DNA of 54,941 nucleotides, filler included, from Jimgerdemannia flammicorona (lineage: Eukaryota): NCBI GenBank assembly GCA_003990765.1. It is 2 parts of 2 records of this genome, joined end to end, with 100 filler letters (N's around TTAATTAATTAA, not from the genome) between each part and the next. Parts side by side here need not be neighbours in the genome. Positions count along the whole stretch, not along the records: positions 27,524 to 54,941 come from RBNJ01000631.1; 1 more part is not named here. The stretch is one strand, 5' to 3'. Positions 4,431 to 53,653 of the stretch are shown here, one piece after another. Within the stretch, counting starts at the first letter, position 1, and each line of letters begins with the position of its first letter. The translations under genes and the position numbers were made by a program. The notes under the pieces are model-generated. The model had not been told where the DNA came from, did not search any database, and was given only the letters and a program-made list of their open reading frames with translations.

Positions 4431-5076
4431 GAGGGGGATTCGGGCTGTATATGAAGGGATAGAACATGAGGGTGATTCGTTAGGCGGCCACGTGATGTCG
4501 GCTAGAGCAAGTTTCGTGGTTTAGTTATCAGTGCTGGCTTGACCAGCGACGAGGGACAAACTGCGGTGGTATAAACTATGCAATATAAATGTAATAAAAG
4601 AATATAAGTACCGCTCTGTGTGATAGATCCTCGCGAAATCGTTGAACTATGCGGCAGCGACACTCATCCTCAGCGCTACCTTCCACATCTCGCCCGTTCG
4701 TCACGCCTTCAAGTACTAACCCTTACCTCCCGTGTGTCGATGCGTACGTCAGCTCTCTCATCAGGCATGGGCTCGAGTGACAGCATGGTGAGACGATGGC
4801 CAGCCTCCGCGGCCTGCAAATGTATTTGGCTCGGAGGTCCGATAATACCGGCAGACGCATTCCGTGACGTATTTGGCGATGTGGGGGGGAGGTTCGGGTT
4901 CGTTTATCCGAGTGGCTTGTAATATACAAATTTGGGGCGCTTACGCTTGCGCAGTCTTCTACGTGGCCCTCTCATTAATTCACGCTCGCCGTGGTATATA
5001 TACATACTATCATTTATTAAATTCAATTATACAAGTATTAACTATCTAAACTATACTTCTATAGGCACCCACCCTC

Positions 5077-11892: not shown

Positions 11893-12316
11893 TAGTGCTC
11901 CTAATGAATTGAATTGAATCGAATTTGGCCCAAACTCAATTCAATTTGATCAAATCAAGGGTCTAATTCGATTTGATTTAAATCAAATCAAAGGTCCAAT
12001 TCGATTCAAAGTTCGATTCAAACCTTAATTTTAAAAATATAATAACTCGACGAAAACTCATCCAAATTTAATATATTTTAGCTTGTTAGATTCACTGTAT
12101 TAATGTGATTCTAACAAGCTAAAGTACGATAGATTTGGATGAGTTTACACTGAGTTATTGCATTTTGAAATTTAGGGTTTAAATTAGACTCTCAATTTGA
12201 TTCAACTTTTGATTTGATTCAAATTGATTCAAATTGAAAAATCCCCAATTTGATTTGACTCATTTAACCCTCAATTTGATTTGATTCGAATTGATTCAAC
12301 TCATTTGGGAGCACTA
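11893..12316. mobile_element. 424-bp non-autonomous hAT-type MITE with foldback structure, inserted in Gypsy copy 1
   Basis: 8-bp TSD GTCCTGTA (11885-11892, 12317-12324). Imperfect TIR of about 22 bp (TAGTGCTCCTAATGAATTGAAT / ATTCAACTCATTTGGGAGCACTA). Empty site visible in Gypsy copy 2 (about 24393-24415). Subterminal GAATC/GATTC-type pentamers. Confidence 0.9.
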
Positions 12317-12449
12317 GTCCTGTATCAGTGAAGTCAGAAAAATCTGCCAACAGAAGTATAAGCAAGAAGCTGCTGAAGCAAAAAAGAAAGCTGAAGAAGA
12401 TGACCAGCCTTCAGAGCTTCAAGCTGACAGTGATGATGAGGAGGAACAA

Positions 12450-12880
12450 GAACCAGATATCACCCTCAAGGTCAAGAAGTTTCACCCTGAAGCCAAGATC
12501 CCAGAATATAAGACTAAAGGAGCTATAGGAATAGACCTTATCAGTATTCAAGATGCTACTCTCAAACTATAGACCACCACTCTACTTGGCACTGGAATTG
12601 GAGTCAAGTTGTCAGAGAACTATGCTGGAATTATCAAGACCAGGAGTAGTTTGGCCAAAAGTGAAATCTCAGTTGAAGGAGGAGTAATTAACCCTGATTA
12701 CACAGGCAAGATTTTCCTTATAGTCAGGAATTACAACCCTATCACCCCATTCAAAGTCAAGAAGTATGACAGGATTAGCCAGATGCTGATCCACAAAATC
12801 AAGAAGCCCAAGATCACTGAAGCCATTGAACTCATCAAAACCAAGAGAGGAGAACAAGACTTTGGATCTACTAGAAGAGG
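12450..12880 (+). pseudogene. dUTPase domain within Gypsy pol (between protease and RT)
   Basis: Motifs GIDL, RSSLAK, GGVINPDYTGKI, DRISQMLI and RGEQDFGST correspond to trimeric dUTPase motifs I-V. Second copy at about 23850-24250 (-). Confidence 0.9.
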
Positions 12881-15800
12881 AGTCTATACTGCCACTAAGA
12901 TTACTGAACTTGAGTACAAGAAAGACAGGACCAGAACAAGTATACATATACTATTGGAGAAAACTTTCCCCTAGAAGAACAACTTCTCAAGATCTTGTAC
13001 CAGAATGAAGAAGTACTTACTATAGACTTCAGGAATATCCACAATCAAGAATCCAAGTACTACTATGAAGTTGACACCAGTGATACCAAGCCCATCTACC
13101 AGAAAGCCAGACCTATACCACCTACCTATAGAGAATGGCTGCAAGCAGAACTCAAGGAAATGGAAGAAGTCAGAATCATCAAGCAAGCTATTAGTCCCTG
13201 GGCTTCACCCATTGTTCTTGCTCCAAAGAAAGGAGTAAGCCTGGAGAGTTTGCCCCAAGACTCTGCATTGACTATAGAAAGCTCAATGTAATTACCAAGA
13301 AGGATAGACAGCCCTTGCCAAATATTCAAGAAATCCTTACCACCCTTTAAAGTGAAGCCAAATACTACACCATCTTGGATCTGTTCTCAGGTTTCCATCA
13401 GATTGGTCTCACTCAAGATGCTAGTGAGAAATCAGTCTTCATTATACCTGATGTCATCTATATCTACCTGTGAATGCCATTTGGAATGTATAATGCTCTA
13501 GCAAGTTTTCAGCGAATGATGAACAGAGTCTTCAGCAATGAGATCAGAAAATAGCTCTTTGTCTATGTTAATGATATTATTATCTTCAGCAATACTACAT
13601 GGAAACATATCAACTATATATAGCTAGCCCTCAAGAAGCTCAAGAAGCATGGTCTCTATATCAAGCCCAAGAAGTATAAGTTTATAGCTCAGGAAATCAC
13701 TACCTAGGACACCTTATCAACCAGACTAGAATCCATACAGACCTCATGAAGATTGAGGCTGTTGCAGTCTACCCAAGACCCAGAACAACTACAGAAGTCC
13801 ATGCCTTCCTTGGACTGGCCTTCTACTATAGAAGATTTATCAAAGGATACTCTAACATTACAGTACCTATCTATGAGCTACTGAAGAAGGAGATCAAATT
13901 TGAATGGACTAAGAAATACTAAGAAATCTTCAATAAACTCAAGACCAGATTGGAACCTAGAGTTCATCCTGCAGACAGATGTAAGTGCTATAGGACTTGG
14001 AGTAGTTCTAGCTCAAAAGAAAGATGGACATGAATATGTTATCTCCTATATAAGCCAAGGTACCTATGAAGCAGAACAGAACTATGAGTTATGCAAGCTC
14101 AAATGCTTAGCAGTAGTTTGAGCAGTAGATAATTCCACTACTACCTAGCTGGGAAATACTTTACTATTCAAACAGACCATTCTGCTCTTGCCTGATTATT
14201 CCACACTCTGAATCCCAAAGGAATATATACCAGATAGATCTACAGATTGCAAGAGTATGACTATACTATCAAGCACTACCCAGGAAGAACCAATGTCAAT
14301 ACTGATGTACTCTTAAGGATACCCCAAAATACTCCCATCAAGACTATTCAACATAAATAAGGAGTTATACTATGGATTAATCAGCTATCTTGGGCAGCAG
14401 AAGATGTCCAACCACCTCGAACTCTGGACAATCACTATTATCAACTGGACTTAGAAATAGTTTGAACTAAATAACACTATACTCAGAAAAGGAGGAAAGC
14501 TTATAATACCCAAACACAAGAAGTATTAAGTAATGAAGAAAGTATATGAACAAGGATATCAAGGAGAAACTAATATATATGATAAGGTAAGAAGAACTAT
14601 GTGGTGGTCCAAAATGGAAGAAGACCTGTGCCAATTTGTCAAAGGGTGTGATAAGCATCAAAAACAGAAACAAGATCAGCAAGACCAGACATCTGGGTCA
14701 TTAAGAATTGAGCCTATCCTCTTTCACCACATCACAATGGATATCATTGGGCCACTACCAGTAATACTATCAGGAAACTGCTACATTATAGTTATTGTAG
14801 ACCTCTTTACCAAATAGATAGAAGCAGAAGTATTACAAGAAGCCAATGTCCTCTCTATAGCTAACTTCCTGCACCAAGAAATCATCTACTATAAGACACC
14901 AAAGCAAATTACCACAGACTGCAGCACAGAATTTATCAATGAATTCTATAAGATAATATATTAGAAATACAAGATTCAGTACATCAAAACCACTGTATAC
15001 TACCCTCAAGGAAATAGACAGATAGAGAGAACCAATAAGACCCTCAAGAACATTCTGGCAAAGATCTCAGACACATATGAGAATTGGGATAACTACCTCC
15101 CAACTGCTCTCTCTGTTCTATAAGACATATGGTCACAGAGTACATACTTTATCTCAAGAGAACTGCTCTTCAGAGAAAACGATTCCAATAGAACCTCAGC
15201 CACAAATCTAGATCTAACTTAGAGATAGGTTGACTCAGAAATCTAGAGACTATACCAAATCAGAAAGAAGGCTGAAGATTATATCATCAAGTTATAAGCA
15301 CTCATAAGAAAGAATACAGAAAAGAATCACAAGACCCTAGAACTCATCTAAATCAGAGAAAAGGTCCTACTGTATTGAAATATGGTAGAAGCCTCATAGT
15401 TATGAAAACTGGAGTCCAAATAGGAAGGACCCTTCAATATATAAGATATCAAGAGAACTACCTTCTGGCTTAGAAAACTCTCAGGGACCATACTGCCTAC
15501 TATAGTACACAGGAACAGACTCAAGAAGTACTATGAACCTATATAAGAGAAGTAAAATGTAATGACTACCTGTGAGGTTCTAGTCTATGAATCATAACAG
15601 CATCTCTCATAACTAGCAGGCAATCTGTCTGGACTATTCTCTAAGGGATATAGTACCAGCAACTACTCATCTATGAAACTTTTGAAGCCAGAGGAGTTCA
15701 AACCATCAACTTATTAGTCAAGATCATAATTAAGCCCTTGCTCTATATAAAGGAAGTGACTCTTCACCATCACACCAAAATATATAAGAAAGACACCAGC

Positions 15801-15910
15801 CTATAAATACCACTTTTCAATCCCCTACTAGAGGTTATGAGATCAACAAATTTTTCAGGACTAGACTAATGAATAAGGATGTTTAAGAAGATCCTTATTC
15901 AGAAGGAAGA

Positions 15911-17472
15911 TGTAACAGTGACCTCAAAATAATGATATCAGTACTGGAGACAGTCTTTCCTTACAAACTACTAGATTGAAGCATAAGAAGATCATATGGC
16001 ATAATTTACCCAGGCTATGAGATGAGTAATGATTACCAATGTAAGTCATTGTGTCTACAGGACAGGCATCTTGAGGAATATAAAAGAAGGATTAAGGAAC
16101 CACAGTAGCAGCAACCCAATAATACCCACCAATTACAAAATAGCTCAAAGACTTATCACAAATGAAATGTCTACTGCTCACCAAACCTCAAGGTCAAGAA
16201 ACCACCAAGGCATCTCAGTTAAAGAAAGGATGTTTCAAGACATCAGAAGAGTCATGAGAACCTACACCACAAGGACTCCTAGTGTCAACCTGAGTACTGG
16301 TGACCCTTATCATTATATTCTCTACTATTGTGAAATGGAAACAAGAATTACTATTGCTACTGAATGCCTTCAAATGTGGCAGAAGTATGAAATAGGAAAC
16401 CTTCTCTACTGGGAGTTTTCACAGACCAGCCCTCAAGAGTTACAAGATACCACTCTCATAGATATATATAAAATAAGGCCAGCCAAAAAGATTCATCAGA
16501 TCTTTAGGCATATACTATAGTTGATCTCCAACTTGAAGTATATCAGAGTCTCAGACTTCAGAGATCTATCAGCCTATCATATCAATGCACTAGAAGCCAG
16601 AGTGACTACAGAAGCTCAGTCTACTATCACTCTCAATAGTGATGAAGTAGAAGACTTCTAGTATCCCATCCTCCAGAACAACCCAGATCAATTCCTGTAA
16701 GAATTGATCTCAGTATTCTAAGACTCAAGTATCTAGGTTAGACCTCTCCAAGACCCCATATTTATCCCTTATTTTGTAGAAGAGAATCTCATAGACTGGA
16801 GAGCCCCAGATCTCCTTACTCTCTCTGCCACTGCCAAACATGATGATGTTATCAGCAATGATATCATTCTGTATGATATATGCAAAATATATAATGAGAC
16901 TGAAATGTTTACAGATCTCATCTCCTTCAGCAATAATGAGGATGAAGCTACCATAGTCCTGAACATTCTGCTCTAAGTTCCTTGGTTATACTGAATTATT
17001 CTGATATTCTTTTCCTGTATAATAGCTATTCCTCCACTGGTATTCTAATCTTGTATAACTCAGAATTATTCCAGCACTCTTTCCTATATCACTAAAATTA
17101 TACCAGTATCCTGAACTTATGTAACCATCTGTACTGATACTAAAACTTAGTAGTTTTCTGTGTTCCAGTATTTTATTTGATTATTGGAATTTATATTTAG
17201 CTTTATATCTTAGCAACTATTGAATTATATTTTGTATAAATACCCCTCTTATTTTCTTCAAAATAAAGTCAGTCAAGTTCACTTATACACAATTCCTTGT
17301 GAGCAATCTAAAGAGATAACAAGATAGTTTAAAGATAAGAAGTTTGAGGACTATAAGACCTTGGGAAGATACTCCAATAAGAACTTACTTATAATAAACT
17401 TAAGTTAGTCTAAGAGATATATCTTGAAGAGAATCTGACATATTTAAAAGACTCAGCAACTACTATATAGCA
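15911..17472 (+). repeat. 3' LTR of Gypsy copy 1
   Basis: Preceded by the PPT; starts TGTAACAGTGACC, ends CTATATAGCA, followed by TSD TTGT. Confidence 0.93.
16167..16976 (+). pseudogene. 270-codon ORF of unknown function embedded in the Gypsy LTR (also 8466-9275)
   Basis: ATG at 16167 to TAA at 16974-16976 in one frame. In-frame stops are mostly sense codons in the other LTR (TAG/TGG, TAA/CAA). The N-terminal part is also seen in copy 2 (ORF 20337-20552). Confidence 0.7.
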
Positions 17473-18561
17473 TTGTATATATATTTATAAAAATATAATT
17501 TTGAAGATCAAAAGAATAGTAATAGAAAGGTTATTATATATAAAGGCAAATTAGTAAGTATTTAAATATATTAATTAATATATTTGATTACAAAAATACT
17601 AATGGCTCTTTATATATAGTATTCTTTTATATAGTAATTTAATTAATAATTAGTAAATATTACTGTAATTTATATAACTAAAATGATCAATAATAGAATT
17701 TTAGCTATACAGAGAAGAAATAGATAGATAATCTATTATTATCTATCAAAGTTAGTAAATATATATAAAGTCTATATAAGTGTAAAGTATAAGTAAGTGA
17801 TAGTACTAAATCTGTTTGAGTATTGATAAATAATAACTTGAAAGCTTTTCATATACTCTATTAAGCAAAAGATATAATTAGAGCTAAATAATATATAAAT
17901 ATTTTTATTTATTTCTTTAAATGTATTAGCCAAATATATATTATTATTAGTATATTATAGTATATTTATTTATTTATATTTCTTTGTATTTTATATAGAG
18001 ATAAAGTTTTGCAGATATAATAAAGATATAATATCAGATAGAATATAAGTAATTTTGATATTAAATTTTTATAAAATCCATTAAACTAATGATAAGTTTT
18101 GCTCAATAATTTTAATTTTAATAACTTTATTCTATTTGAACTAATATAATCTCTATTGTCTAAAGAAATATAATCATTTTATTTATATTATAATAATTAT
18201 ATAAAATATATATATTTAGTTTATATCTATTTGAATTGGAAATACTACTGTGGTAATTTATTAGATATACTTTTTATTAAAGTCAATAAGTATAATTATA
18301 TTTATATATATATGATCCTTTGCTTTACTCTATATTTAAAGAGAAATTTATATAATATAGATTATACATATAAAGTAGTATCTTTATAATACTCACTCTT
18401 TTCAAAAAGATAAATATTAGTACTGGTATTATTATATAACTCTAAAATAGAATATTTAATAGCTATATATTTAGGGTAGATAGAGTATTGAGTTTAATAA
18501 TTTAACTATTATATAGTATATAGTCAGCTCAAATAATATATAGAGATCTTTATATAAAACC

Positions 18562-19705
18562 TATTGAGATGACAACTCAATATGTCAATATATGACCTTA
18601 TGCTATTCTATCAGATTTATATCATTCATCAGTAATATAGAGAAATATGCAACTTATGCAACTTTAATAAAATATCTCTCTTTATAATAAAGGTTATGAG
18701 CCCTACTAAGTACTAAATAGCTATAGCAAAAATATCTCTTTAAATATACTACATATATATACTAGAAATGTTTGAAAACCAGCCTAGCAATATAAGTATG
18801 GAAATAGACATACTAATTGTAAGTATTCCTCCTATAGGTGTAACCTCAATAAGTATGGGAAATATAGTCTTAGTTATTAGTATAAATATAGTCAAAAGAT
18901 CCATTCTGATCTTCAATGAGAAAGACTATGCTATTTGGGTACTTTATATGATGAATCTCCTTGATAAATGTAGCTTAGTAGAATATATAAAGCTATAAGC
19001 ACTAATTCAAGATTATAATCTCACAAATAATTGCTCAGCATTATACAAAATTATATTTATATTGTTGAACTTGCAAATAAAGCTTATAATACATACTATG
19101 ATAGCTCATAACATGTAAGAGATCCTATATAAGTATCATATACAAGCATCTATATCAAATCAATTCCATCTAAAATCTCAGCTATTCAATTTTTGAATGA
19201 AGCCAAAGAAGAGCATCTGCAATTATACCAGTCATATTGATGATCTAGTGAATTAAGTGAATTCTCTTAGTATGTCTACAGATTGCATTAGTAATAAAGA
19301 TAAGGTTATAGTACTCACAAGAAGACTTCTAAATGTATATAATATTATCATCATAGCTATGTATAAGAGCAGCAGTCTCTCAGACTATGTCTACATAATA
19401 ATGAGTCTTATGAATGAGGAAATATATTAAGGAAATAGTATCAATAATGATAAGAATACTTTCTATGAGTCTTATAGATAAGGTGGTAAACAAGGTCAAA
19501 AATGTAGTCAACAAGATCAGTAAACCCAAACCCAAGCTCAACAATATAATAATAACCAGTCTAGCCAATCAATCAAATATGATGGTTATTGTGAATACTG
19601 CAGCAAGTATGGATATAGAAAATATCAATACTATAACTAAAAAAATTATAAGAAGAGTGGTAAAAATAAGCAATAATGTGAAAAAAGCCAGTATTGGCAA
19701 TATAG
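18562..19705 (+). mobile_element. Ty1/copia 5' fragment (short LTR, PBS, decayed gag), interrupted by Gypsy copy 2
   Basis: LTR of about 130 bp at 18562-18691. PBS GGTTATGAGCCC at 18692-18703 is of the copia type that uses an internal tRNAi-Met fragment. Gag-like FNEKDYAIW and a decayed knuckle GYCEYCSKYGYRKYQY at about 19585-19633. Confidence 0.8.
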
Positions 19706-22700
19706 TGTCATGTAGTGGTCGCTGAGTCCTTTAAATATGCCAGATTCTCTTCAAGATATATCTCTTAGACTAACTCAAGTTTGTTATAAGCAAGTTCTTA
19801 TTGGAGTGCCTTCTCGAGGTCTTATAGTCCTCAAACTTCTTATCTTTAAACGTCTTATTATCTCTTAGATTGCTTGCAAGAAAGTGTATATATTGTACTA
19901 AGAGAAACTGACTTTATTTCAAAGAAAATAAGAGGAGTATTTATACAAAATATAATTCAATGGTTGCTAAGATATAAAGCTAAATATAAATTCCAATAAC
20001 TAAAATATAATGCCAGGACAGGAAAGACTGCTAAGTTTCAGGGTCAGCACTAATGATTATACAGATTTAGAATACTGGTATAATTCAGTATTACCTCAGA
20101 ATGCTGATGCTGGCATAATTCAGTGTAACCAAAGAACTTTAGAGCAGAATGTTCAAGACCATAGGGGCTTCATCCTCATTAGAGGTTAGGATGTCTTTGA
20201 AGGAGATAAGGTCTGCAAATTCATTGTCATTACATAGATTGCACATTTTATATATATCCATGGGAGTGATATCTTGTAGCTCTTGAGTGCTGGCCTGTAG
20301 GAACTCCTGGCAGAGGAGGTTTCCTATTTCATACTCCTACCATATTTGGAGGTATTCAGTAACAATGGTGATCCTTGTTTCCATTTTACAGTAGTAGAGG
20401 ATAAAGTGATAAGGATCTGCAGTATCCAGGTTGACACTAGGAGTCCTTCTTACATGGGTCCTCATGGCTCTTCTGATGTCTTGGAATATCCTTTCTTCAA
20501 CTAAGGTGCCTTGGTGATTCCTTGACCTTGAGGTTTGGTGAGTGGCAGGCATTTTATTTGTAGTAAGTCTTTGAGCTATTTTGGAATTGGTGGGTCTTGT
20601 TGGTTACTGTTACTATGGTTCCTTGATTCTTCTTTTATATTTCTCAAGATGCTTATACTGTGGTCACAATAACTCACAGTTGGTTATCATGCTCATCTTG
20701 TCTGCCATATGATCTTCTTATGCTCTAATCTGGTAGCTTGTAAGGAAAGGCTGTCTCCTGTGCTGATGTTATCATTCTGGGGTCACTGTTACATCTTCCT
20801 CCTGAATAAAGATCTTCTTGAGCATCCTTATTCATTGGTCCAGTCCTGAAAAATTTGCTAATCCTATAACCTCTGGCAAAGGGTTGAAAAGTGATATTTA
20901 TAGACTGGCATCTTCCTTATGTATTTTGGCATGATAGTGAAGGGCCACTCCCTTCATATAAAGCAAGGGCCTGATTCTGATCTTGACCAATCTGTTGACA
21001 GTTTGAACTCCTCTAGTTTTGAAAGTCTCACAGATGAGTAGTTGCTGGTACTGTATTCCTTAGAGAATGGTCCAGACAGATAGTCTGCTGGTCATAGAAC
21101 ATACTATTATGATTCATGAACTAGAACCTCATGGGCAGTCATTATGTTTTGCTTCTCTTGTATAGGTTTATGATACTTCTTGAGTCTGTTCCTATATACT
21201 GTGGTAGGCAGTATGGTCTCTGAGATTTTTCTAAGCCAGAAGATAGTTCCCTTGATATCTTGGATATAGAAAGGTCCTTCCTATTTGGGCTCCAGTTTTT
21301 GTGACCATGAGGCTTCTACTATATTTTGATACAGTAGGACCTTTTCTCCAATTTGGATGGGTTCTAGGGTCTTGTAATTCTTTTCTGTATTCTTTCTTGT
21401 CAGTACTTGTGACTTGATGATGTAATCTTCAGGCTTCTTCCTAATTTGGTATAGTCTCTGGATTTCTACATTGATCTGTCTCCAAGTTAGGTCTAGATTT
21501 GTGGCTGAGGTTCCATCAGAATCTTCTTCTCTAAAGAGCAGTTCCCTTGGGGTAAAGTGTGTACTCTGTAACTGTATGTCTCATAGGACAGAGAGGACAG
21601 TTGGGAGATAATTATCCCAATTCTCATATGTCTCTGAGATCTTCACCAGGATGTTCTTGAGGGTCTTGTTGGTTCTCTCTGTCTATCCATTTCCTTGAGG
21701 GTGGTATGCAGTGGTCTTGATGTGCTGGATCTTGTATTTCTGATACATTATCTTATGGAATCTATTGACAAATTCTATGCTATGGTCTGTTGTGATTTGC
21801 TTTGGTGTCTTGTAGCAGCAGATGATTTCTCAGTGCAGGAAGTCAGCTATAGAGAGGGCATTGGCTTCTTGTAATGCTCCTGCTTCTATCTATTTGGTAA
21901 AGAGGTCTACAATAACTATAATATAGTAGTTTCCTGATAGTGTTACCCAATGATATCTATTGCAATATGGTAGAAGGAGATAGGTTCAATTTTTGATGAT
22001 CCAGATGCCTGGTCTTGCTGATCTTGTTTCTGTTTTTGGTACTTATTACACCCTTTGACAAATTGGTGCAGGTCTTCTTCCATTTTGGGCCACCACATAG
22101 TTCTTCTTATGTGTTGGTTCCTCCTAGGTGTCCTTGCTCATATACTTCCTTCATTACTTGATACTTCTTGTATTTGAGTATTACTAGCTTTCCTTCTTTT
22201 CTGAGTATAGTGTTGTCTAGTTCAAACTATTTCCAAGTCCAGTTGATGATAGTGATTGTCCAGAGTTCAAGGTGGTTGGGCATCTTCTACTGCCCAAGAT
22301 AGCTGATTAATCCATAGTATAACTTCTTATTCATGTTGAGTAATATTGATGGGGGTATTTTGGGGTATCCTTGAGAGTGTATCAGCATTGGTGTTGGTTC
22401 TTCCTGAGTGGTGCTTGACAGTACAGTCATACTCTTACAGCCTGTAGATCCATCTGGTATATATTCCTTTGAGATTCAGAGTATAGAATAGCCAGGCAAG
22501 AGTGGAATGGTCTGTTTGAATAGTGAAGTATTTTCTAGCTAAGTAGTAGTAGAACTTGTCTACTGCCCAAACTACTGCTAAGTATTTGAGCTTACATGAC
22601 TCACAGTTCTGTTCTGCTCTACAGATACCTTGACTTACATAGGAGATGACATATTCATGTCCATCTTTCTTCTGGGCTAGGACTGCTCCAAGTCCTATAG

Positions 22701-25700
22701 TACTTGCATCTGTCTGCAGGATGAATTCTAGGTTCCAATCTGGTCTTTTGAGAATAGGTGCTTGGGTCAACCTGGTCTTGAGTTCATTGAAGGTTTCTTG
22801 GTATTCCTTGGTCCATTTGAATTTGGTTTCCTTCTTCAGTAGCTCATAGATAGGTACTGCAATGTTGGAGTATCCTTTGATGAATCTTCTGTAGTAGCTG
22901 GCCAGTCCAAAGAAGGCATGGACTTCTGTAGTCATTCTGGGTCTCAGGTAGGCTGTAACAGCCTCAATCTTTATAGGGTCTATGTGGATTCCAGTCTGGT
23001 TGATGAGGTGTCCTAGATAGGTGATTTCTTGAGCCACAAACTTGCATTTCTTGGGCTTGATGTAAAGGCCATGCTTCTTGAGCTTCTTGAGGGCTAGCTG
23101 TATATGATTGATATGTTCCCATATAGTGTTGCTGAAGATGATCACATCATCAATATAGACAAAGAGCCATTTTCCAATCTCATTGCTGAAGATTCTATTC
23201 ATCATTTGCTGGAAACTTGCTGGAGCATTGCACATTTCAAATGGCATTCACAGGTAGATATAGGTGGCATCAGGTATGATGAAGGCTGATTTCTCACTGG
23301 TATCTTGAATGAGATCAATCTGATAGAAGTCTGAGAACAGATCCAAGGTGGTGTAGTATTTGGCTTCACTTCCAAGGGTGGTAAGGATTTCTTGAATATT
23401 TGGTAAGGGCTGCCTATCCTTCTTGGTGATGGCATTGAGCTTCCTGTAGTCAATGCAGAGTCTTGGTGCAAACTCTCCAGGCTTGCTTCTTTTCTTTGGG
23501 GTGAGGATAATGGGTGAAGCCCAGGAACTGATAGCTTGCTTGATGATTCTGGCTTCTTCTATTTTCTTGAGTTCTGCTTGCAGCCATTCTCTGTAGGCAG
23601 GTGGTATGGGTTTGGCTTTCTGGTAGATGGGCTTGATATCATCAGTGTCAACTTCATAATAGTACTTGGATTCTTGATTATAGATATCCCTGAAGTCTGT
23701 AGTAAGTACTCCTTCATTCTGATGCAGGATCTTGAGAAGTTGTTCTTCTAGGGGAAAGTTTTCTCTAATAGTATATGTGTACTTGTTCTGGTCATTGTAT
23801 TTCTTGTGTTCAAGTTCAGTAATCTTGGTGGCAGCATAGACTCCTCTTCCAGTAAATCCAAAGTCTTGTTCTTCTCTCTTGGTCTTGATGAGTTCAATGG
23901 CTTCAGTGATCTTAGACTTCTTGATTTCATAGATTAGCATCTGGCTAATTCTATCATGCTTCTTGATTTCGAATGGAGTGGTGGGGTTGTGGTTCCTAAC
24001 TATGAGGAAGATCTTGCCAGAGTAATCAGGATCAATTACTCCTCCTTTAACTGAGATTTCACTTTTGGTCAGACTGCTTCTGGACTTGATAATTCTGGCA
24101 TAGTTTTCTGACAGCTTGACTCCAATTCCAGTGCCAAGTAGGGTGGTGGTCTGTGGTTTAAGAGTAGCATCTTGAATGCTGGCAAGGTCCATTCCTATGG
24201 CTCCTTCAGTCTTGTATTCTGGGATCTTGGCTTCAGGGTGGAACTTCTTGACCTTGAGAGTGATATCTGGTTCTTGTCCTTCCTCATCATCACTGTCAGC
24301 TTGAAGCTCTGGGGGCTGGTCATCTTCTTCAGCTTTTCTTTTTGCTTCAGTAGCTTCTTGCTCATGTTTCTGTTAGCAGATTTTCCTGACTTCACTGATA
24401 CAGGACCAGCAGTCATTTAGGTGTTCAGTGCAGTACATCCTGGTACCATGGGGGCATCTTCCTTGAGGGACATAGCTATCAATAATCTTGTTGTATCACT
24501 GCTCATCTGTGAGCTTGGGTGTTTTGTTCTTGTTCTTGTTCTTATTCACCAAGTACATAAAGACCTCTGTTTCCTCTTCATCTCCTTCCTCTATATCTGG
24601 TAGAACTCCTTTATAGATATTGATAGAGACTTGTACCTTTCTTCCTCTATAGTTGATCTGCATCTTCTAGATATTGAGGTCAATGATGGCCTTGGCCTTG
24701 TGAAGCCATTGGTTGCTAATGAGGATATCATAGTTAGTGGCACTTATAACAATCACATCTACTGGGATGGTAGCTCCTTCTATCTTAATGGGGACTTCTC
24801 AGATTTTGCCAAGGGGGGTAGCTCATGTACTATCTGCTATAACATAGACTATCTTGGTGGACTCTTCAATGTTCCAGCCTAGGCAGTCAATTGTCTTCTT
24901 ACTTATAAGGCATCCTCCAGCACTGGTATCAATGATAGAATCAAAGATACAGTCTTCAATCTGACATGAGGTATAGGCTGATGTCTTGTACTAGTCTTCA
25001 GATTCTTCGGATTCTTTCTATGCATTGAGCTTCTACAATCTTGTACTCTTGATTCTTAACAGTAGTTGCAAGTCCTACTCTCAACTGCTGTCTGAAGACA
25101 GGAACTTTGGCTAGCTGTCCAAAAGTAGCATTGACCTTCTATTCCTTGAGATACTTGTAGATATCATACTGATAGATCTTGGTCTTGTGTAGCTTCTATT
25201 CCTTCTTGCTTTCACTTTCTCCTGAGACTGGAGTAGAGCCTTCAATAATTTGGTGGGCAGCTTTATCTAACTCTATGTCTTGATCAATCTCCTTGGGTTG
25301 AGTCTTACTTTGAATAGTGACAGCTGGAGTCTTCTTTGGTCTTCCAACTGGCTTGCCATTGCTCTTCTCATCATAGAGCTTGGACCAGGTTCTGGTACCT
25401 TCAGTAGCAGGGTAGAATTTAAGCTCTTTGTAGTATTCTTCATCATTAGTATCGCCAATCTCCTTAATGACTACTGCATTAGTTTGTTCTCTGGTTCTGC
25501 TAGCATTGCTTGGTTGGGCTTTGCATCTTGTTTTGGTCATGCAATTCTTTACATAGTGGCCTTCTTCTCTATATCTGAAGTATGTAATATTGTATTCTTC
25601 TGTAGCAGCTGCAAATCTCTGTACTGGTCTCCTGTTAATACTTTGGACTTCTCTAACAACATCATCAAGGTGTGCAGTCATCTTAGTGAACTGCTTGGCA

Positions 25701-27423
25701 AGTTCCTCTACTGGGTCAGCTTTAGCTACCTTGGGGGTAGGTGGGGTTGGTTGTCTGTTTACAACTATAGCAAGTATGATACTAGTTGGCTTTGATGACT
25801 CTATCTTGATATCAGTTATTTTCTCTATTAAGTGTTCAGCAGAGTATCTAACAGTCCAATATCTCTATGCAAAGACCACTTTCTGATCAAGAGTCAGTAC
25901 AGCTGGGGTAGACCAGATTGCTAGGGCAATTTCAGAGTGAACTCCTTTGAGGAAGATTGAATCTGCTATTTGTTCTTAAGGGCATCATCATAGTTAGCCA
26001 AGATAATCTGATAGCAGATTCAGATATAGAATGAGTTGGGATCTTCACTAAGTCCTTGGCAGTTAGTGTTGAGTTGATTCTTGAGAGCTTGCTTGATCTC
26101 TTCAGTATAGTATATTGTTCTGAGGAAGGCCTTCATATTAGCAAGTTTGGCTGCACTATTATCAGCAATAGTGATTATATTGAACTTATCTCTAGTAGGT
26201 CCTCTGAGGCTGACTGGTAGAAGGGCCAATTGTGCATCCACACCAAGGGTTTGTATAGTGGCAAATTGTTTAAAGTCTTCAATGAAGGTCAGGATTGACT
26301 CTTCAGTAGTATATCCATAGAATATAGGGAGATACATTTCCATCTTGTCTTGAATTCTTGCAGGGGTGACTCTTGTAGTCAGGGTAGTTATTGTAGGGGT
26401 TGTTCATTTTTCAGCTTGAAAGTGAGAGATTCATCTTGAATCACCAGTCAATGGGCACCAAGTTGTCACATAGTGGTCGCTGAGTTCTTCAAATATACCA
26501 GATTCTCTTCAAATTGTATCTCTTAGACTAATTCAAGTTTGTTATAAGCAAGTTCTTATTGGAGTGCCTTCCCAAGGTCTTATAGTCCTCAAACTTCTTA
26601 TCTTTAAACTATTTTGTTATCTCTTAAATTGTTTATAAGGAAGTGTGTATATTATACTAAGAGGAACTGATTTTATTTCAAAGGAAATAAGAGGGGTATT
26701 TATACAAAATATAATTCAATGGTTGCTAAGATATAAAGCTAAATATAAATTTCAATAACTAAAATAAAATGCCAGGACAGGAAAACCTGCTAAGTTCCAG
26801 GGTCAGCACTGATAGTTGTACAGGTTTAGGATGCTGGTATAATTCAGTGTTATCTCAGAATATTAGTGCTAGTATAATTTAGTGTCACATCAGAATGCCA
26901 GTGCTGGCATAATTCAGTTTAACAAAAGAACTTTAGAGCAGAATGTTCAAGACCATAGAGGCTTCATCCTCATCAGAGGTCAGGATGTCTTTGAAGGAGA
27001 TGAGGTTTATGAATTTGTCATTGTCACATAGGTTGTGCGTTTTACATATATCCATAGGAGTGATATCTTATAGCTTTTGAGTGCTGGCCTATGGGAACTC
27101 CTGGCAGAGGAGGTTTCCTATTTCATACTGCTGCCACATTTGGAGGCATTTAGTAGCAATAGTGATTCTTGTTTCCATTTCACAGCAGTAGAGGATAAAG
27201 TGATAAGGATCTGCAGTACTCAGGTTGATACTAAGAGTTCTTCTTTTTAAGCTATTTTGGGATTGGTAGGTCTTGTTGGTTACTGTTACTGTGGTTCCTT
27301 GATCTTTCTTTTATATTTCTTGAGATGCTTGTACTGTGATCACAATGACTCACAGTTGGTCATCATTACTCATCTTATATGCTATATGATCTTCTTGTGC
27401 TCTGATCTGATAGCTTGTATTTT
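19706..27423 (-). mobile_element. Ty3/Gypsy copy 2 (same family as copy 1, shorter LTR variant); 5' LTR runs into the gap
   Basis: 3' LTR 19706-20793 (1088 bp), PPT 20794-20803, 5' LTR 26464 to beyond 27423, PBS TGGTGCCCATTG at about 26449-26460. ORFs 26020-26343 and 25196-25681 (gag), 23248-24192 (dUTPase+RT), 22435-23247 (RT YIDD + RNase H TDAS). Confidence 0.95.
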
Positions 27424-27523
27424 NNNNNNNNNNNNNNNNNNNNNNNNNNNNNNNNNNNNNNNNNNNNTTAATTAATTAANNNNNNNNNNNNNNNNNNNNN
27501 NNNNNNNNNNNNNNNNNNNNNNN
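27424..27523. other. Artificial contig linker (N44-TTAATTAATTAA-N44)
   Basis: Exactly 100 bp and symmetric; the central 12-mer gives stop codons in all six frames. Confidence 0.97.
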
Positions 27524-28342: not shown

Positions 28343-28490
28343 CGAAATGTATATGAGAGAAGTAGGTTATGGTAGAGAGAGAAAGGGTGGTTTTGTTCTA
28401 ACTGATGTAATAGTATTATTATATATAAATAGTTGCAATTACAGTTATTATGTTTTAATGAGATTATATCTCAGAATATAAAAAAAAAAA

Positions 28491-30642
28491 GAGATTATAT
28501 CTCAGAAGATTAAAGAGAAGAGATTTATTGTTATATTAGAGAATATTAACAAATAAGAGTTAAAGTATAATTATATTAGATATTTATATTATTTATTAAG
28601 AGATAATAAATATATTTTTTTGACTGTTTTGAATCTATATTTAGAGGAAATATTTTAAAAGTTTATAACTTTTAAAATTATAATAGCTTTTAAAAAAAAA
28701 ATGTTAATAATTTTTTATATATTAATTCTATCTTTAGGATATATTTTTAACAGAAAAACAATGTTTCAAAATAACATTTTTTTCAAATTTTAATTTGTCA
28801 GCTAAATGATTTTAAAAGATGATCTTATCTATAATTAAAGAGATAATTAATAGATAGATTAAATATATATACATATTAGTAATTTTGGTTTGTAAATTAA
28901 AATATATTAGTATACTAAAGTAAGGTCTAATAGTATATATAAGAATTTTAATTGAGATATATTATATTTAATAAAACTATATTCTAATAGAATAAATATA
29001 TTTTAAATAATTAGAATAGTCTATTAGCTTTAAGTTCTATATTTTTATGTTTCAATGGCTATAATAATAATATATTTTAGTATTACTTTTAGTTATATAT
29101 ACTATATATATTAAAAAAATATTATATTTATATCTAAGTTTATTAAATTTAGACTTATTAATAAGTTGGATATAGTAAAAGAGAGGCTCTTTATTAAAGT
29201 TACATAAATTGCATATTTTATGTATTACTGATAAATAATATATATTTGATAGAATAGCATAAGTTATATATTGATATATCAAGTTACAATCTCAATACTC
29301 CTGCTCAATAAGATATATAATCCAAAAAGAATGCAAACTAGATTAAAAAAATAATAATAAAGTAATACAATGAATACAAAAACTTGAACTACATATAATA
29401 CAAAAAATTATATATATAAAATCGTATATCTAAGAAATTTTTGCAGATTAAAAAGTATTCTGTAATATGTGAAATCCTTATAAAAATCCACTTATAGATG
29501 AGAGATATATATAGTAAAAATGTAAGATATAAGAGATAATAATACAAATATAGAAAGGGAAGTCTTTTGAGAATCTGAAAAAAAAAAAAAAGATATTATA
29601 TCTCAGAAGATTAAAGAGAAGAGATTTATTATTATATTAAAGAATGTTAACAAATGAGAGTTAAAGTATTAATATATTAGATATTTATATTATTTATTAA
29701 GAGATAATAAATATATTTCTTTGAATGTTTTGAATCAATATTTAGAGAAAATATTTTAAAAGTTTAGCTTTTAAAAAAAAAAATTCAATAATTTTTTATA
29801 TATTAATTCTATTTTTAGGATATATTTTTAATAGAAAAACAATGTTTCAAAATAAAATTTTAATTTATCTGCTGAATGATTGTAAAAGATGATCTTATCT
29901 ATAATTAAAGAGATAAATAATAGATAGATTAAATATATATACATATTAGTAATTTTGATTTATAAAATAAAATATATTAGTATACTAAAGTAAGGTCTAA
30001 TAATATATATAAGAATTTTAATTGAGATATATTATATTTAATAAAACTATATTCTAATAGAATAAATATATTATAAATAATTAGAATAGTTTATTAGCTT
30101 TATTTTTAAGTTTCAATTGCTATAATAGTAATATATTTTAGTATTACTTTTAGTTATATATATATTATATATATTAAAAAAATATTATATTTATATCTAA
30201 GTTTATCAAATTTAGATTATTAATAAGTTGGATATAGTAAAAGAGAGGCTCTTTATTGAAGTTACATAAATTGCATATTTTATATATTACTGATAAATAA
30301 TACATATATATTTGATAGAATAGTATAAGTTATATATTGATATATCAAGTTACAATCTCAATACTCTTGCTCAATAAAATATATAACCCAAAAAGAATGC
30401 AAACTAGATTAAAAAAATATAATAAAGCAATGCAATGAATACAAAAACTAGAACTACAAATAATATAAAGAATTATATATATAAAATCCTATATCTAAGA
30501 AATTTTTGCAGATTAAAAAGTATTCTATAATATGTAAAATACTTATAAAAATCCAATTATAGATGAGAGATATATATAGTAAAAATATAAGATATAGAAG
30601 ATAATAATGCAAATATAGTAAGAAAATTCTTTTGAGAATCTG

Positions 30643-30655
<13 letters not shown>
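28491..30655. repeat. Tandem duplication of about 1.1 kb (28491-29590 / 29591-30655), each unit ending in GAGAATCTG-poly(A)
   Basis: Both units start with ATTATATCTCAGAAGATTAAAGAGAAGAGATTTATT and are colinear. Each contains a minus-strand copia 3' LTR (starting 29297 and 30363) and a PPT. Confidence 0.88.
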
Positions 30656-30693
<38 letters not shown>

Positions 30694-48100: not shown

Positions 48101-50151
48101 GGAGGTGTCGACAACATCCATTCGATCACAAGGACCAGAGTTGACATCACCAAGGCAGGCACCGAAGCAGGTATTGATGTCACTGATCAAAAGAGCCTTA
48201 CCCGGGAAGGGTCCAGACACCAGATCATGGAAGCCACCAATGGGAAGAGAGGGGTGGGCATAAACCCCAACCAAAGCCAAGTCCTGGAACATGAGCCGGA
48301 TATGGAAGGGGTTGGCAGAGGACCTGGAAATGAGGGGAGTGAAACAGTTTGACACAAGGACTACGAGACCACTATTCTGGTGACCCACGATCCTGTGCGA
48401 CACCGGAGGAGAGGACATGTGAATGAGTAGAGAGGGATGCAGTAGAATATACCACGTTTCACATATGAAAAGAACATCGAGGGCAGGACCAATCAACTGA
48501 CTGAGCACATCGAACTTGTCCTGAGGTAGTTCATGTGTATTGAGGAACCCGACTCTCATTGTGGGCCAGGTGCATTAGTGCCAACAGTGTGGGAAGTACC
48601 TGAGGTAGAAGCTTCGGCTTCCAAATCCATTACCATATCACCAGTCATGGCTACAGTACCACCTGCCTTCGAAGCAGGGCCGGCTGACAGGGAGACAGGG
48701 GAGGGGAGAATGAGGCCGAATTCCGTGGCCCAAGCTTGGTAGAAGGTCTGCACCTCGGGCCTCTTCGCAGTGGCTTCGCCCTCCAGCTGCCAGACCCAAG
48801 CATGGAATGATTGGAGTACCCATGTCTTCACAGCCTCCATGGCATTCTTGTTGCATGGGAGCGCGGGGTCCCAGGCCGACAGCACCAAGAACCTGAGCAC
48901 CTTCATCTTCTTATGGAACGCCGTGACATAATCAGGGTGGAGCAGGAATTCGATGGTCAATGCTGAGATATATGACATATTGAGAACTTTAGACAACATC
49001 ACATGGACGTCATACAAGTTCTTCTGAATCTGCCTGATCTTAAGATAGGCAAATCCGTCGACATAAATGCACTGAAGCCTAGCGCCCTTCTCAGTCAGCG
49101 ACAAATGAGAGGTCAGCTTGCAGGTCATGTGCAAAAGGGCAGCGGCGGCAGCTGCTCTTTCCATCTCGGGGTTGGCCTGGGTTCTATCCTTGATAGAAAC
49201 CTTCTTGGCAGCAGCGGTGTACGATTTGGGGGGGGTGGGGGTCGAAGCGGAGGACGAAGATGGGCTGGTGGCGCTGAGACCTGCAGGCGTAACCTGGGGC
49301 ACTGGCGCACCAGACTGTGACACAGTGGCTTTAGCGGCCCGCTTGTCCGCTCACTTCTGGGCCTTTGACCATATGTTCGCGACAGGACCAGTAGGAGGGG
49401 GGGCCGAGGACTTGGGGTGGGCGGATGTAGAAGGGGCGGTGGAGGTACTTCCCAAAGGAGCACCAGATGACGAGAGGGCAGTTGGCGCATGATGCGCAGC
49501 AAGCTGCGCCATCAGCTGGGTGTTGATTTTGGCCAGTTCGGCCACTTGAGTCAGCAGATCCTAGACTGCTTCCTCATCGCAGCCATTTCCATGATGAAAT
49601 CAGGGTCGGCTGAGGGGCCCGCACGACCGGCTGTTGTGGTCATTCCCAAACTAGTGTTCGGGTGACCACGCTTGTTCCGATTGAGGGGTGGGGGCATGGG
49701 AGAATAGGGGGGGCATGGGAGAATAGGGGGGGTGCTGGGTGTCATGGTCCGAATCGGAAGAGATCGCGATCTCTTCGTCATCTTCCGCATCGTGCAGGGA
49801 AGATAAATACACCGATATCGGTCGTGCATCCCCGCATGACCTGCACATCGCCATAAGGCTACCCTCACCGAAGCTGAGGGAGAGAAGACCAGTGCCGCGA
49901 TATTCAGCGTAGCGAAGAGCGATGCTGAAGCGCGCGAAAAGGTGAGTGGCGTTGCCATCATTGCCGATGACGGAGGAGGTGGCCGACATTGCCGAAATAG
50001 GCGAAGGTGTGTTTGTTTGTGTTTGTGAAATTGTGAAATGTAGGTCACGTGACCTTTGTTTGTACAATGAAAAAATAATGAGGAAGGGGGGTATTTATAC
50101 CCAATGGGAGGCTTAGCTAATCAAAGTGACTGCTTTCTTAATTTGGAATAG
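45135..50151 (-). mobile_element. Telomere-associated non-LTR retrotransposon, unit 5 (near full length, lacks about 50 bp of the 5' end)
   Basis: Preceded by TTAGGTTAGG. ORF1 49989-48556; ORF2 48559-45525 starting MRVGFLNTH..LFICETW (APE N-terminus). Confidence 0.95.
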
Positions 50152-51328
50152 GGTGAAGGTTGTGAGATTTAAGCAAAGATTTGTGCAAGAAATCGACAGA
50201 GTCGAGCAATAGCCATGTTAGATCGTGGAAATCTTTCGAACATCTCTCGTCAGACTTGCTATTGCTTAAATACCTTTCACTTGTCTGCTTCGGACTTAGT
50301 AATTGGTTACTGTTTATACAATGTAACATGAATTTAATCATGAACGAGAGTGAATTACTTCGCGGGTTTTACAATCGGGTAGCTTTGATTCACTGATCAA
50401 ATTGCATTAAAATAAAATTTTAATTAAGTTGTAATTGTATTACCGAGCGATTTTTCTTTTAAGATTAGGGTCAGGCGCGTGCTACCGATTAGAATAAAAC
50501 ACACATTGCACAGTGCAGGAAAAGGAAAGACGCAGTGTAACATTTTATGACCAGTCATGTTTATTACAGGGGCGTTTTGCCTGCCATAGATAACACCTTC
50601 TTGTTCTGCTTCTCAACTAGCTTCTTTAAGTTGAGACCGCGATAAATAACTGGGCTGTACTTCACAGAACAGTGTTTTGACAGAGTATTCATCACTCTGG
50701 CTGCCAAAGACAGTGCACGACGATGGTAATGATTACCAGAGTAGTTATGCATGTAAGGCGTAACATTAATCTCACTGAGCTTAGGGCCAGAATCTTCATT
50801 ATTCACACGAGATTCCTCTGAAAGCATTCAGGAGCGGTCTTGATAAGATTTAAGACTCAAAAGATAAGCTATCCGATTCGGTTTAAAGGCACGTCGTACC
50901 AAGAACTGATGGAATTCGGAGATAGCTTCTTCATAATTGTCATACTCTGATGAGTTCCGGATAAGGCGAGTATTCTCGTCTCTAAGCCATCCATCGATGT
51001 ACACTTGAGGATAATACGTATCCAGTATAGAGTAAATATGAAGGTTCATATCCTTATTATAGTTTCGGAACTGAATTGACCAAGTCTTATCAGCGTTGAG
51101 TTTCACATATGCTTTGAGATCGCAAAACGTAACTTCATTAGCTATGTGTTGTGTGAAATACAAACTAGAGCTCATCATTTCCAACGATGTTATAACATGC
51201 TTTGCAGCTTCGTCGCCCTTATCTGTAATAATAATGATATCATCGATAAATCGAAAGTAAAGTTCCGGCAAAATCCCTTGGTCATCAAGCCTAAGTTCAT
51301 GAAAGGCCATAAAGAGATTTGCTACATT
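50152..51328 (-). mobile_element. 5'-truncated endonuclease-deficient Penelope-like element (Coprina/Athena-like)
   Basis: Frame 51331-50564 reads PNVANLFMAFHE..YFRFIDDIIII..VTFCDL..YNKDMNLHIY..GWLRDENTRLIRNSS..FLVRRAF, i.e. the PLE RT C-terminal motifs and thumb. One in-frame TGA at 50828-50830. The 87-aa tail has no GIY-YIG motif. Unrelated to the flanking LINE. Confidence 0.88.
50205..50266 (-). ncRNA. Type I hammerhead ribozyme in the PLE 3' region
   Basis: Minus strand reads AGCAAUAGC-AAGU-CUGACGA-GAG(AUG)UUC-GAAA-GAU(UUCCACG)AUC-UA^-ACAUG-GCUAUUGCU. It has the intact CUGANGA/GAAA core, short stem II, stem III, a CUA cleavage triplet and a 9-bp distal stem I. Confidence 0.85.
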
Positions 51329-51348
51329 GGGTTAGGGTTAAGGTTAGG

Positions 51349-53640
51349 CTTCAAGTAAGAATTTATTCATTGTAGAGAAGATAAGATACATCGGAGCAAC
51401 AAACGGCAAAGACTCCTAAGATGAGAAAAGCAAAACAAGGCCAGCGAAGTAAACAACTAGCTAAGAAGTACAAAAACAAAGGCCAGAGAGGTGACCACCC
51501 TTTGGACGGGCTGGATAAAACCATTTTGTCACAGCCATAAAGATAATAAATGCCAGAAGCAAGAAAAGAAGTGCTAAGATAAAATACACATTCGCCCGGC
51601 GCCAACTACAGGAACGATATCGTCAACTGAACACCAAATGACTGACATGAGATGAATAACTCAATGCACTCTCAACAACGGGGGAACCAACCAAGGTGAA
51701 TGAGGTGAAAGAAAGAAATAAAGAAAATGTGCAATCGCTCGATCACCCAAGCATCTTCGTAATCTCGGTCAGGCAGAACCCGACTGCAAGATGGCCACCA
51801 GAATTGCACATGGCGTCGATAGCATGGTAGGCTGTCTCGTGAAGAGCGTAAAGAGGGTAGGCGCGAAGTTCTTCTTGCCATTCGTCACCGGTAAACCAGT
51901 CGAGCTGTTCATCTCGATCTAAAGAACCTCGGAAAGCAGAATACGAACCATCGAGAAGACCGCACCTGAGGAGATGGCCACAATGAAACTTATCTCCACA
52001 GGGGCAGGGGCGGGGTTGGCCAAAATAGCCATAACGCCAGGCGAGGGCAGAGCGCACAAGCCGGGGGAGGGAAGGAGAGGACATGATCGGCTCCCCTTGA
52101 CTGTAAACGGCCTTTGGGGGTGATATACTGAATGAGAGCCTAGGAGGAGGAGGCCCATTCCTGGAGCAGCTGGTCCCGAAGGAAAGACTGGAGGAAGGAG
52201 CAGAGCGAGCGAGTCTTGCGGACCTGGGGACGAAGGTCCCAGTACCTGTCGAGGAAGTCAAGCTAAGATGTCCATCGCCGGAACTTGTCAATAATAGAAC
52301 CCGGGGGACGTGTGACAAAATGCTCACTAAGGGGGCCGATGGAGTTGTTGCCCGACTTGCTACACCAATCCAGGTGGGCTTGGAACATGCAGCAGAGGTC
52401 AGACGTACGACGAAGAAAGGAGGAGAGGCCGAGAATCGAACTGCCAAGCAAGGGATGGCCGGAAAATCCAACCGCCCAAGCGACAGCATCATCAAAGACC
52501 TGCTCGGGATGCTTCAACACCTGAAGCCCTGTGGTAGTAGTCGGACAGGAAGCTCGTAGAAGGGGGAGGCCATACTTCAGCTGGGGCCTGATGAAAGTAC
52601 GTACGATGGCCAGCTTGACCATTGGCGACCAGAGGGGACCACGGGCGCGGCAGAAACCAAGAGTTCGTTCCGCCTTTGCTGTATTCTGCAAAGCTAGGTC
52701 GACAAAGTCAAACCCTTTGTTGGTGTACGGCACGCCCAGGTACACGTAAAAGGTGGGTCGCGGGCAGGGTTCGCCCCCAATCAGCACAGTACAGTCAGCA
52801 GGGCCAACATAACTACACTTCTTGGGATTGAGCTCTATACCGTTCGCCCGGAGCCAGTCTTCATAAAAATCAACCATCCTTTGCCCTTCCGCAGCAGTGC
52901 GGGGGGTAAGGGTGATATCATCAGCAAAGAAGAGCTCGAGGGGGAAGTCGTACTCCTTGAACTATTCATCAAAGGAGGCGGCGAGGGGATCGATAAAGAC
53001 ATCAAAGAGCCAGGGGGAGAGGAGGGAGCCCTGGAAAAGGCTGCGCTCAGTGGGGACCGAAGAGGTGATGAGGCCATTAACAACCACCTGATAAGAACAG
53101 TAATTGAACAGGCTTCGGATAATGCTAAGGAGGGCCGCATCGGCACCTCGCGCCTCAAGGCGGGAAAGAATGTACTTGAGGGGGACTCGATCATAATCCT
53201 GCCGGAGGTCCAAAAAGACACGGCGGCCCCATTCCTTAGCCCACGTCTCGTGCGATAACAGGACGTGAGAGAGGGACGAGAAGCGGGTTCGGAAGCCACC
53301 TTGGCAGCGCGACATTTCTGTCAGGCCACTTCGGCTCTTGACATATCCTTCCAAACATCGCTCGAAGAGTCTACGAAACATTTCAGTCAGAGCAATAGGG
53401 CGAAATCCATCAATCGTACGCGATTCCTCCTTCTTAGGGACCGGGGTGATGATGGCTGAGTTCCAGCGGCGGGAATTGAGCCCCCAGACCATGCACATCT
53501 GGAAGAAGAACGAAAGGGCTTTCGAAAGGCTACAGGGGGCGTCCTTCTCACCTGCCATCACCCGAAGGATCCGGACGTGCAAGGAGTCGGTACCGCATGC
53601 CTTAGAGAGGGGGTAGCTGCGGACAGCCCTCCAAACCGCA
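51349..53640 (-). mobile_element. Telomere-associated non-LTR retrotransposon, unit 6 (5'-truncated, about 2.3 kb; RT + CCHC)
   Basis: Preceded by GGGTTAGGGTTAAGGTTAGG (51329-51348). ORF pieces 52962-53582, 52263-52877 and 51743-52495. Few disruptions; CpG largely retained. Confidence 0.95.
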
Positions 53641-53653
53641 GGTTAGGGTTAGG

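Follow-up and report, generated by a model that had tools for sequence, protein, structure and literature searches.

A 5'-truncated Penelope-like element without an endonuclease, probably added to a chromosome end, within a LINE chain of Jimgerdemannia flammicorona

We found that a polarised chain of LINE units in Jimgerdemannia flammicorona is interrupted by a dead, 5'-truncated Penelope-like element (PLE) without an endonuclease (EN), most likely a Coprina-type copy that was added to a chromosome end (a probability of roughly 80%). The Coprina-type label is given by the anatomy of the element and not by a tree. Terminal addition is supported by the telomeric tails and common polarity of the copies, by their location beneath terminal arrays, by the age gradient of the chain and by microhomology at the junctions, and not by the missing nuclease alone. 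The copy is a truncated member of a known, telomere-docking kind of PLE, and it is the mixed chain around it that is unusual. The window, by which we mean the whole analysed stretch of 54,941 nt, consists of two contigs with a short gap (27424-27467). The chain extends to the end of the second contig, where the window stops within LINE unit 7, and its own telomere lies outside this view. The features are the following.

32391-54941, minus strand: the whole chain of seven LINE units and the PLE, in one polarity, least decayed on the right and running off the contig end
45128-50151, minus strand: LINE unit 5 (APE-RT type), the target, with about 55 nt missing at its 5' end
50149-50153, plus strand: 3' junction, with TAG common to the LINE head and the telomere-complementary end of the PLE; added repeats are absent
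50149-50499, minus strand: 3' pseudo-LTR of about 350 nt; full-length elements carry it at the 5' end as well
50152-51332, minus strand: the 5'-truncated PLE copy, the 3' third of a 3.6-kb EN-less element, with 89-90% identity to about 2457-3632 of a full-length genome copy
50205-50266, minus strand: type I hammerhead motif, core start 50253, predicted cut after 50219, helix III of 5 bp
50564-51331, minus strand: reverse transcriptase (RT) remnant with the end of motif B, motif C (FRFIDD), thumb and C-terminal extension, ending in TAA without an endonuclease
51329-51348, plus strand: telomeric tract from the PLE truncation point to the 3' end of LINE unit 6; its first 4 nt are a PLE match and its last part is the LINE fixed tail
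51341-53644, minus strand: LINE unit 6, truncated at its 5' end and added on the distal side of the PLE

The 1.18 kb between LINE units 5 and 6 is dissimilar to the LINE units, and its minus-strand translation gives a PLE-type RT from just past motif B (PNVANL...FRFIDD) through the thumb, with the natural stop at 50564-50566 and one in-frame TGA at 50828-50830. Over 167 aa the protein shares 41% identity with an EN-less PLE protein (E 1e-38), and homologues of the RT include GIY-YIG-bearing PLEs. The PLE-type RT motifs are present (DK motif, PKxHK..RPI, GIAMG, RFIDD) and distinct from the LINE RT. A comparison with LINE ORF2, in which the query was the upstream RT part of another copy, found no similarity (best E 7.3), and a PDB sequence search returned two weak group II intron-like RT matches only (E 0.04). 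Upon searching the genome with the DNA of the window copy, we obtained 50 matches, many of them ending at exactly the same 3' base, so the observation is not due to chance. The sequence-only reading had placed a PLE-type RT without GIY-YIG between units 5 and 6 in their polarity, and sequence, translation and profile agree on this. A candidate degenerate GIY-YIG in the 3' UTR (CxxC..IGSTR, in another frame) was rejected, as it lies past the stop and continues into the terminal repeat, and the profile does not match it.

Complete copies of 3.6 kb were found at C5076:4054-7658 and C787:17874-14307, both consisting of a repeat of about 350 nt, a body of about 2.9 kb, the repeat again and then CCCTAA repeats. 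A single frame opens at an ATG just past the first repeat, spans the RT and closes behind the thumb; in C24122 it is open for 675 codons up to the first decay stop, and relatives are mostly 936-1077 aa long. It had been proposed that full-length copies be checked for an endonuclease, and those fetched carry GIY-YIG at neither end. For the profile search we built a GIY-YIG profile from 11 homologues; at a threshold of E<1e-6 it recovered 21 of the 101 homologues held out. In all six frames of 17 genome stretches and the window region it found no such domain (best E 0.69), and none was found in 77 environmental relatives, the loci of which were retrieved with a profile from the PLE RT and five relatives. 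Full-length relatives combining a GIY-YIG endonuclease with dispersed insertion, as in the EN-bearing PLEs (Penelope/Poseidon, Neptune, Hydra, Naiad/Chlamys), had been named in advance as evidence against terminal docking, and neither set contained one. In two quick trees, with the named Coprina, Athena and TERT not among the sequences, the RT falls with modest support outside the group with GIY-YIG proteins and joins three unnamed proteins, apart from the main cluster of telomere-motif relatives. The substitutions that separate the copies are for the most part CpG and CpA transitions; traits of this kind, together with the intron signals, suggest a fungal host. At their 5' ends, one or two tandem copies of the first ~70-94 nt precede the repeat in C26649, C11196, C787, C3382, C8944 and C11025, joined at a short T-rich match, which could reflect re-alignment of the RT at the template 5' end or an inherited structure. 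Healing at PLE 5' ends is often seen at an internal telomere-like motif in this tandem-repeat region.

Next, we examined the terminal repeat, which terminates in ACCCTAACCC and holds the type I hammerhead motif. Over the two strands of the window together, the hammerhead descriptor has a single match, and it was matched in 1 of 3000 shuffled versions of the repeat. An Rfam scan of 49900-51500 gave zero matches, the 15 genome copies showed no covariation (281 of 500 shuffles were as high, with the copies differing mostly by transitions), and the minimum-energy fold of the repeat retains only helix I. These three results speak against the motif. Conservation among relatives is the stronger evidence for the hammerhead. 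Among the environmental relatives, 64 of 77 carry a sense-strand hammerhead and 1 of 77 an antisense one. Of 45 distinct hammerheads, 41 have a telomere-like motif, variants allowed, at 40-74 nt (median 59) beyond the cut, and none has one upstream; the corresponding distance in the J. flammicorona family is 64 nt. Closed loops of ~3.5-4.4 kb were assembled for 33 of the 77 relatives, some of them the same element with different start points, a pattern that circular RNA monomers would be expected to give. The closed loops fit either circular RNA or tandem DNA. The seven internal ends of the repeat in this genome all read CCCTAACC(C), with C>T in one of them, so that about 10 nt of telomere complement are encoded by the element itself. 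Self-cleavage by the hammerhead and extension of a telomeric 3' overhang by the RT are predicted for this family on the basis of sequence.

We then located the 3' ends of the family across the genome. The PLE-end pattern gave 44 rows, and removing 17 false matches and the 7 internal repeat ends left 20 true 3' ends, a count that leaves out C11665 and in which the C3035 fragment (~20 nt) is tentative. A telomeric run of at least 9 nt follows 18 of the 20. The neighbour is a LINE at 13 ends, another PLE piece at 2, and nothing recognisable within 400 nt at 5, with all 15 identifiable neighbours in the same polarity (p 6e-5). The copies are oriented with their 5' ends towards TTAGGG arrays and are intermixed with LINEs, and in this fragmented assembly the contig-terminal arrays of C52, C8944 and C12646 have PLE pieces immediately beneath them. 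Mixed chains, which the sequence-only reading had suggested looking for at other chromosome ends, are present elsewhere in the genome. Tiny 3' fragments also occur in the chains, at C52:140-223 (~84 nt), C118:30333-30400 (~68 nt) and C3035 near 9260, and the C118 fragment begins at the predicted hammerhead cut.

Searching the genome at the protein level gave many weaker PLE matches, and those examined (13 loci and 20 wider regions) represent two further PLE families, here families 2 and 3. The profile search found no GIY-YIG in them (best E 6.5). Telomeric repeats were seen at 0 of 23 listed 3' ends and in 0 of 20 fetched regions; the elements end in poly(A) or a pyrimidine motif, with the telomeric doublet absent. 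The 23 listed 3' flanks are heterogeneous, except for one duplicated pair and one running into an element body. In one tree both families are nested among telomere-motif elements on a long branch. They are abundant (C270, C532, C11, C778, C10102, C6377 and others), form head-to-head inverted pairs and have separate ORF1 (with a Cys/His-rich basic tail) and RT frames that overlap at an A-run slippery site; a canonical hammerhead had no match in the two regions tested. An absent nuclease does not force terminal attachment, since families 2 and 3 are EN-less yet dispersed. The earlier argument that each junction was once a free terminus because the PLE shows no nuclease is accordingly not supported in this form, and the PLE can vouch for its own junction only. 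The open APE frame of the LINE could also supply nicks in trans.

The two dispersed families raise the question of whether the window element, too, inserts at ordinary internal breaks, its position in the chain being incidental. Such a reading can draw on their lack of GIY-YIG and heterogeneous, non-telomeric flanks, and on the copies in C1364 and C32744, which have no LINE neighbour (in C1364 none within 10 kb). The telomeric tails at 18 of 20 ends, the uniform polarity and the three copies under terminal arrays contradict it, and even the C1364 and C32744 copies end in 10 and 14 nt of telomeric repeat. Insertion at internal breaks is thus largely refuted, and we hold it to be extremely improbable.

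Upon closer examination of the window copy, both junction sequences are as first described, with a narrower meaning. At the 3' junction, GGAATAG|GGTGAAGG, the sequence stands but the telomere-like stretch does not represent added repeats, because TAG (50149-50151) is common to the LINE head and the PLE motif. The telomeric run of 5 nt here is the second shortest among the 20 PLE ends. Either no repeats were added or they were deleted later, and a deletion between two CTA motifs could equally account for the junction. The 5' cap at 51329-51348 is a genuine telomeric tract, but it is not specific to the PLE, as its right part is the register that starts LINE 3' ends (77 listed). The left 4 nt match the PLE itself, where 5 of 6 other copies read CACCC. 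The element breaks off at this 4-nt match to the telomeric register and is followed by about three repeats ending in the LINE fixed tail; because the break lies at such a match and the last part is LINE sequence, the cap is not assignable to telomerase alone.

The chain itself carries an age gradient. Identity of the units to a young LINE copy, from left to right, is 72, 86, 87, 86, 85, 90 and 91%, flat over units 2-5, and the CpG count rises from 0 to 48. An overlap of at least 3 nt with the telomeric register was found at 11 of 22 truncated LINE targets, against 6% by chance under the null. A telomere pattern gave 683 overlapping matches, and the 100 matches listed fall on 11 contigs. Among these telomere-ended contigs the LINE lies directly under the array in 8, within 3 kb in 2 and is absent from 1, so that 10 of the 11 carry it, with its 5' end outward. 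In C52 the chain LINE has an ORF2 that stays open for 993 aa and shows APE-like motifs (1798-4776 of the fetched C52 stretch); it matches Pfam Exo_endo_phos at only E 0.019, and its nearest database proteins are unnamed, at 31-35% identity. TERT exons were located in the genome, with a telomerase RNA-binding domain match of 106.8 bits; matches to this domain occur at two separate loci, C164:27429-27917 and C902:18572-18964. The proposal that two unrelated RT classes use the same ends is borne out, with an EN-deficient, telomere-attached PLE beside the LINE in the same polarity.

Under terminal addition, the PLE transcript would be cut by its hammerheads to unit length and might be circular. 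Its RNA, through CCCUAACCC, would pair with the G-rich strand 3' end of a very short or freshly broken chromosome end, which the RT would extend with no need for a nick. The primer in the window would have been the eroded head of LINE unit 5, paired via TAG. Synthesis, or later erosion, would have halted at GGGT. Healing would have followed, with telomerase adding one to three repeats, with the tail of LINE unit 6 joining directly, or with both. In this scheme a single 3' end would be used in turn by telomerase, the PLE and the APE-LINE, the LINE acting far more often.

Microhomology and short spacers are also expected from endonuclease-primed insertion. The AP endonuclease of the LINE might nick the G-strand of an intact telomere array close to its inner edge, with the PLE priming there or on the end left after distal loss, and the junctions would then be made ends and not spontaneously eroded ones. 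We consider this unlikely, though it is in keeping with the open LINE ORF2 and its APE-like motifs, with the LINE neighbours at 13 of 20 PLE ends, and with similar spacers for PLE and LINE (median 17.5 vs 15 nt, p 0.08), both far shorter than terminal arrays. The window 3' junction has no repeat tract to nick, the PLE spacers have a longer tail (at least 28 nt in 5 of 20 vs 1 of 77), and the same PLE layout occurs where no such LINE is reported, namely in the 13 terminal Ascochyta lentis copies, as far as the cited parts of PMC13159263 go.

A chain of this kind could also have been built mainly by recombination at the DNA level, in which strands invade at short interstitial telomere tracts and PLE pieces are copied from one end to another, instead of by fresh reverse transcription at this position. 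Array amplification of this sort has been proposed for MoTeR arrays (in the parts of PMC8381367 cited here). In J. flammicorona, 30 of 77 listed LINE ends join a full-length LINE head, and the window copy and the C5076 copy have 9 private alleles in common; the latter likewise adjoins a LINE head, 7 nt away. The PLE 3' targets nevertheless lie at many LINE positions (49, 56, 231, 940, 1762, 2266, 3217 and 5102), and the ~20-84-nt 3' fragments between repeats are what separate abortive RT events predict, which makes recombination as the main source quite improbable. The window copy was also considered as a duplicate of the C20344 copy, which has a similar truncation point, and this was rejected, with only 1 private shared allele.

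We also put forward, tentatively and as a whole rather doubtful, a broader model. Three unrelated RTs would alternate on one 3' end, and the nuclease-less PLE would be a tracer indicating that most additions by the endonuclease-bearing LINE, too, are made at very short free ends. The PLE RNA would be hammerhead-processed, possibly circular, and would carry a telomerase-sized (~10-nt) internal priming site, while a conserved retained intron would set the ORF1-to-RT ratio group-wide. A sister lineage in the same genome would have left the telomere and would spread internally without a nuclease of its own.

A GT..AG segment of 97 nt that contains a branch-like motif and is conserved in 7 of 7 PLE copies forms the candidate intron, which lies in the part missing from the window copy. 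Its in-silico removal leads into a lysine-rich +1 frame and a protein end at 312 aa. For comparison we used 36 relatives picked for a hammerhead, a telomere motif and the RT in one frame, plus the J. flammicorona family. A candidate of length 1 mod 3 that ends 690-900 nt into the ORF was found in 25 of 37, against 0-4 of 37 in four control windows, and the other two length classes gave 7 and 11 candidates in the same ORF window. All 25 derived tails contain 30-46% Lys+Arg. Retention of the intron would yield an ORF1-RT fusion and splicing a 312-aa ORF1 protein with a basic tail, so that the segment may set the output of the element. The frame shift on splicing, if it occurs, would account for how a structural protein as well as an RT can come from a single ORF in an element of the group nearest to telomerase. 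A literature search, with supplements and two primary papers that might describe one outside its scope, found no Coprina intron.

Head-to-tail telomeric retroelement arrays with several families per end are known from HeT-A/TART/TAHRE in Drosophila and TRAS/SART in Bombyx. The telomeric MoTeR arrays of Pyricularia are likewise head-to-tail, with the end common to several families (cited parts of PMC8381367). As far as these descriptions extend, all such arrays mix LINE-type families, whereas J. flammicorona mixes a LINE with a PLE and has a telomerase gene match. The same literature search, again with the two primary papers and supplements outside its scope, found no mixed LINE-PLE fungal chain. 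The PLE itself is of a textbook kind. In the portions cited of PMC8557442, EN-less PLEs attach to telomeric overhangs via reverse-complement repeats beside a hammerhead, and those of PMC13159263 report the 13 terminal Coprina copies of Ascochyta lentis and the distinction between one-ORF and two-ORF elements; telomere-linked PLEs are also described in Agaricus (PMC7473861, in part). With the Coprina clade (Coprina-1_Alen, PMC13159263; PMC8557442, both to the extent cited) our element shares a DKN-type RT motif, an RT core and thumb without GIY-YIG, direct terminal repeats, a reverse-complement telomeric stretch beside the hammerhead, an ORF pointing away from the telomere and telomeric repeats on both sides. 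It differs from what these portions describe in being the minor partner in long arrays of an unrelated APE-LINE, and in a frame of ~1000 codons that hides a candidate frame-shifting intron. Athena/Terminon elements of bdelloid rotifers (PMC8557442, same portions) are similarly EN-less and telomere-attached, with a hammerhead near the 3' end and polarised chains; unlike our element, they have separate ORF1 and RT, sometimes joined by a frameshift, are rotifer-specific and have a different repeat. The terminal repeats of fungal PLEs contain type I hammerheads whose helix III is large (PMC4209133, in the part cited), as predicted here, whereas helix II of the J. flammicorona motif has only 3 bp.

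Within one genome, a match to a telomerase gene occurs together with a telomere-targeted APE-LINE and an EN-less PLE that use the same ends, and with dispersed EN-less PLEs as a control. This coexistence of terminal and dispersed elements makes the choice between a free end and a nicked array testable by comparing junctions. Elsewhere in the window, 8209-27419 contains several decayed copies of LTR-type elements (dUTPase, RT, RNase H) in both orientations, and 28480-30656 contains a direct duplication of ~1.1 kb, very AT-rich and decayed, followed by a 132-nt A run.
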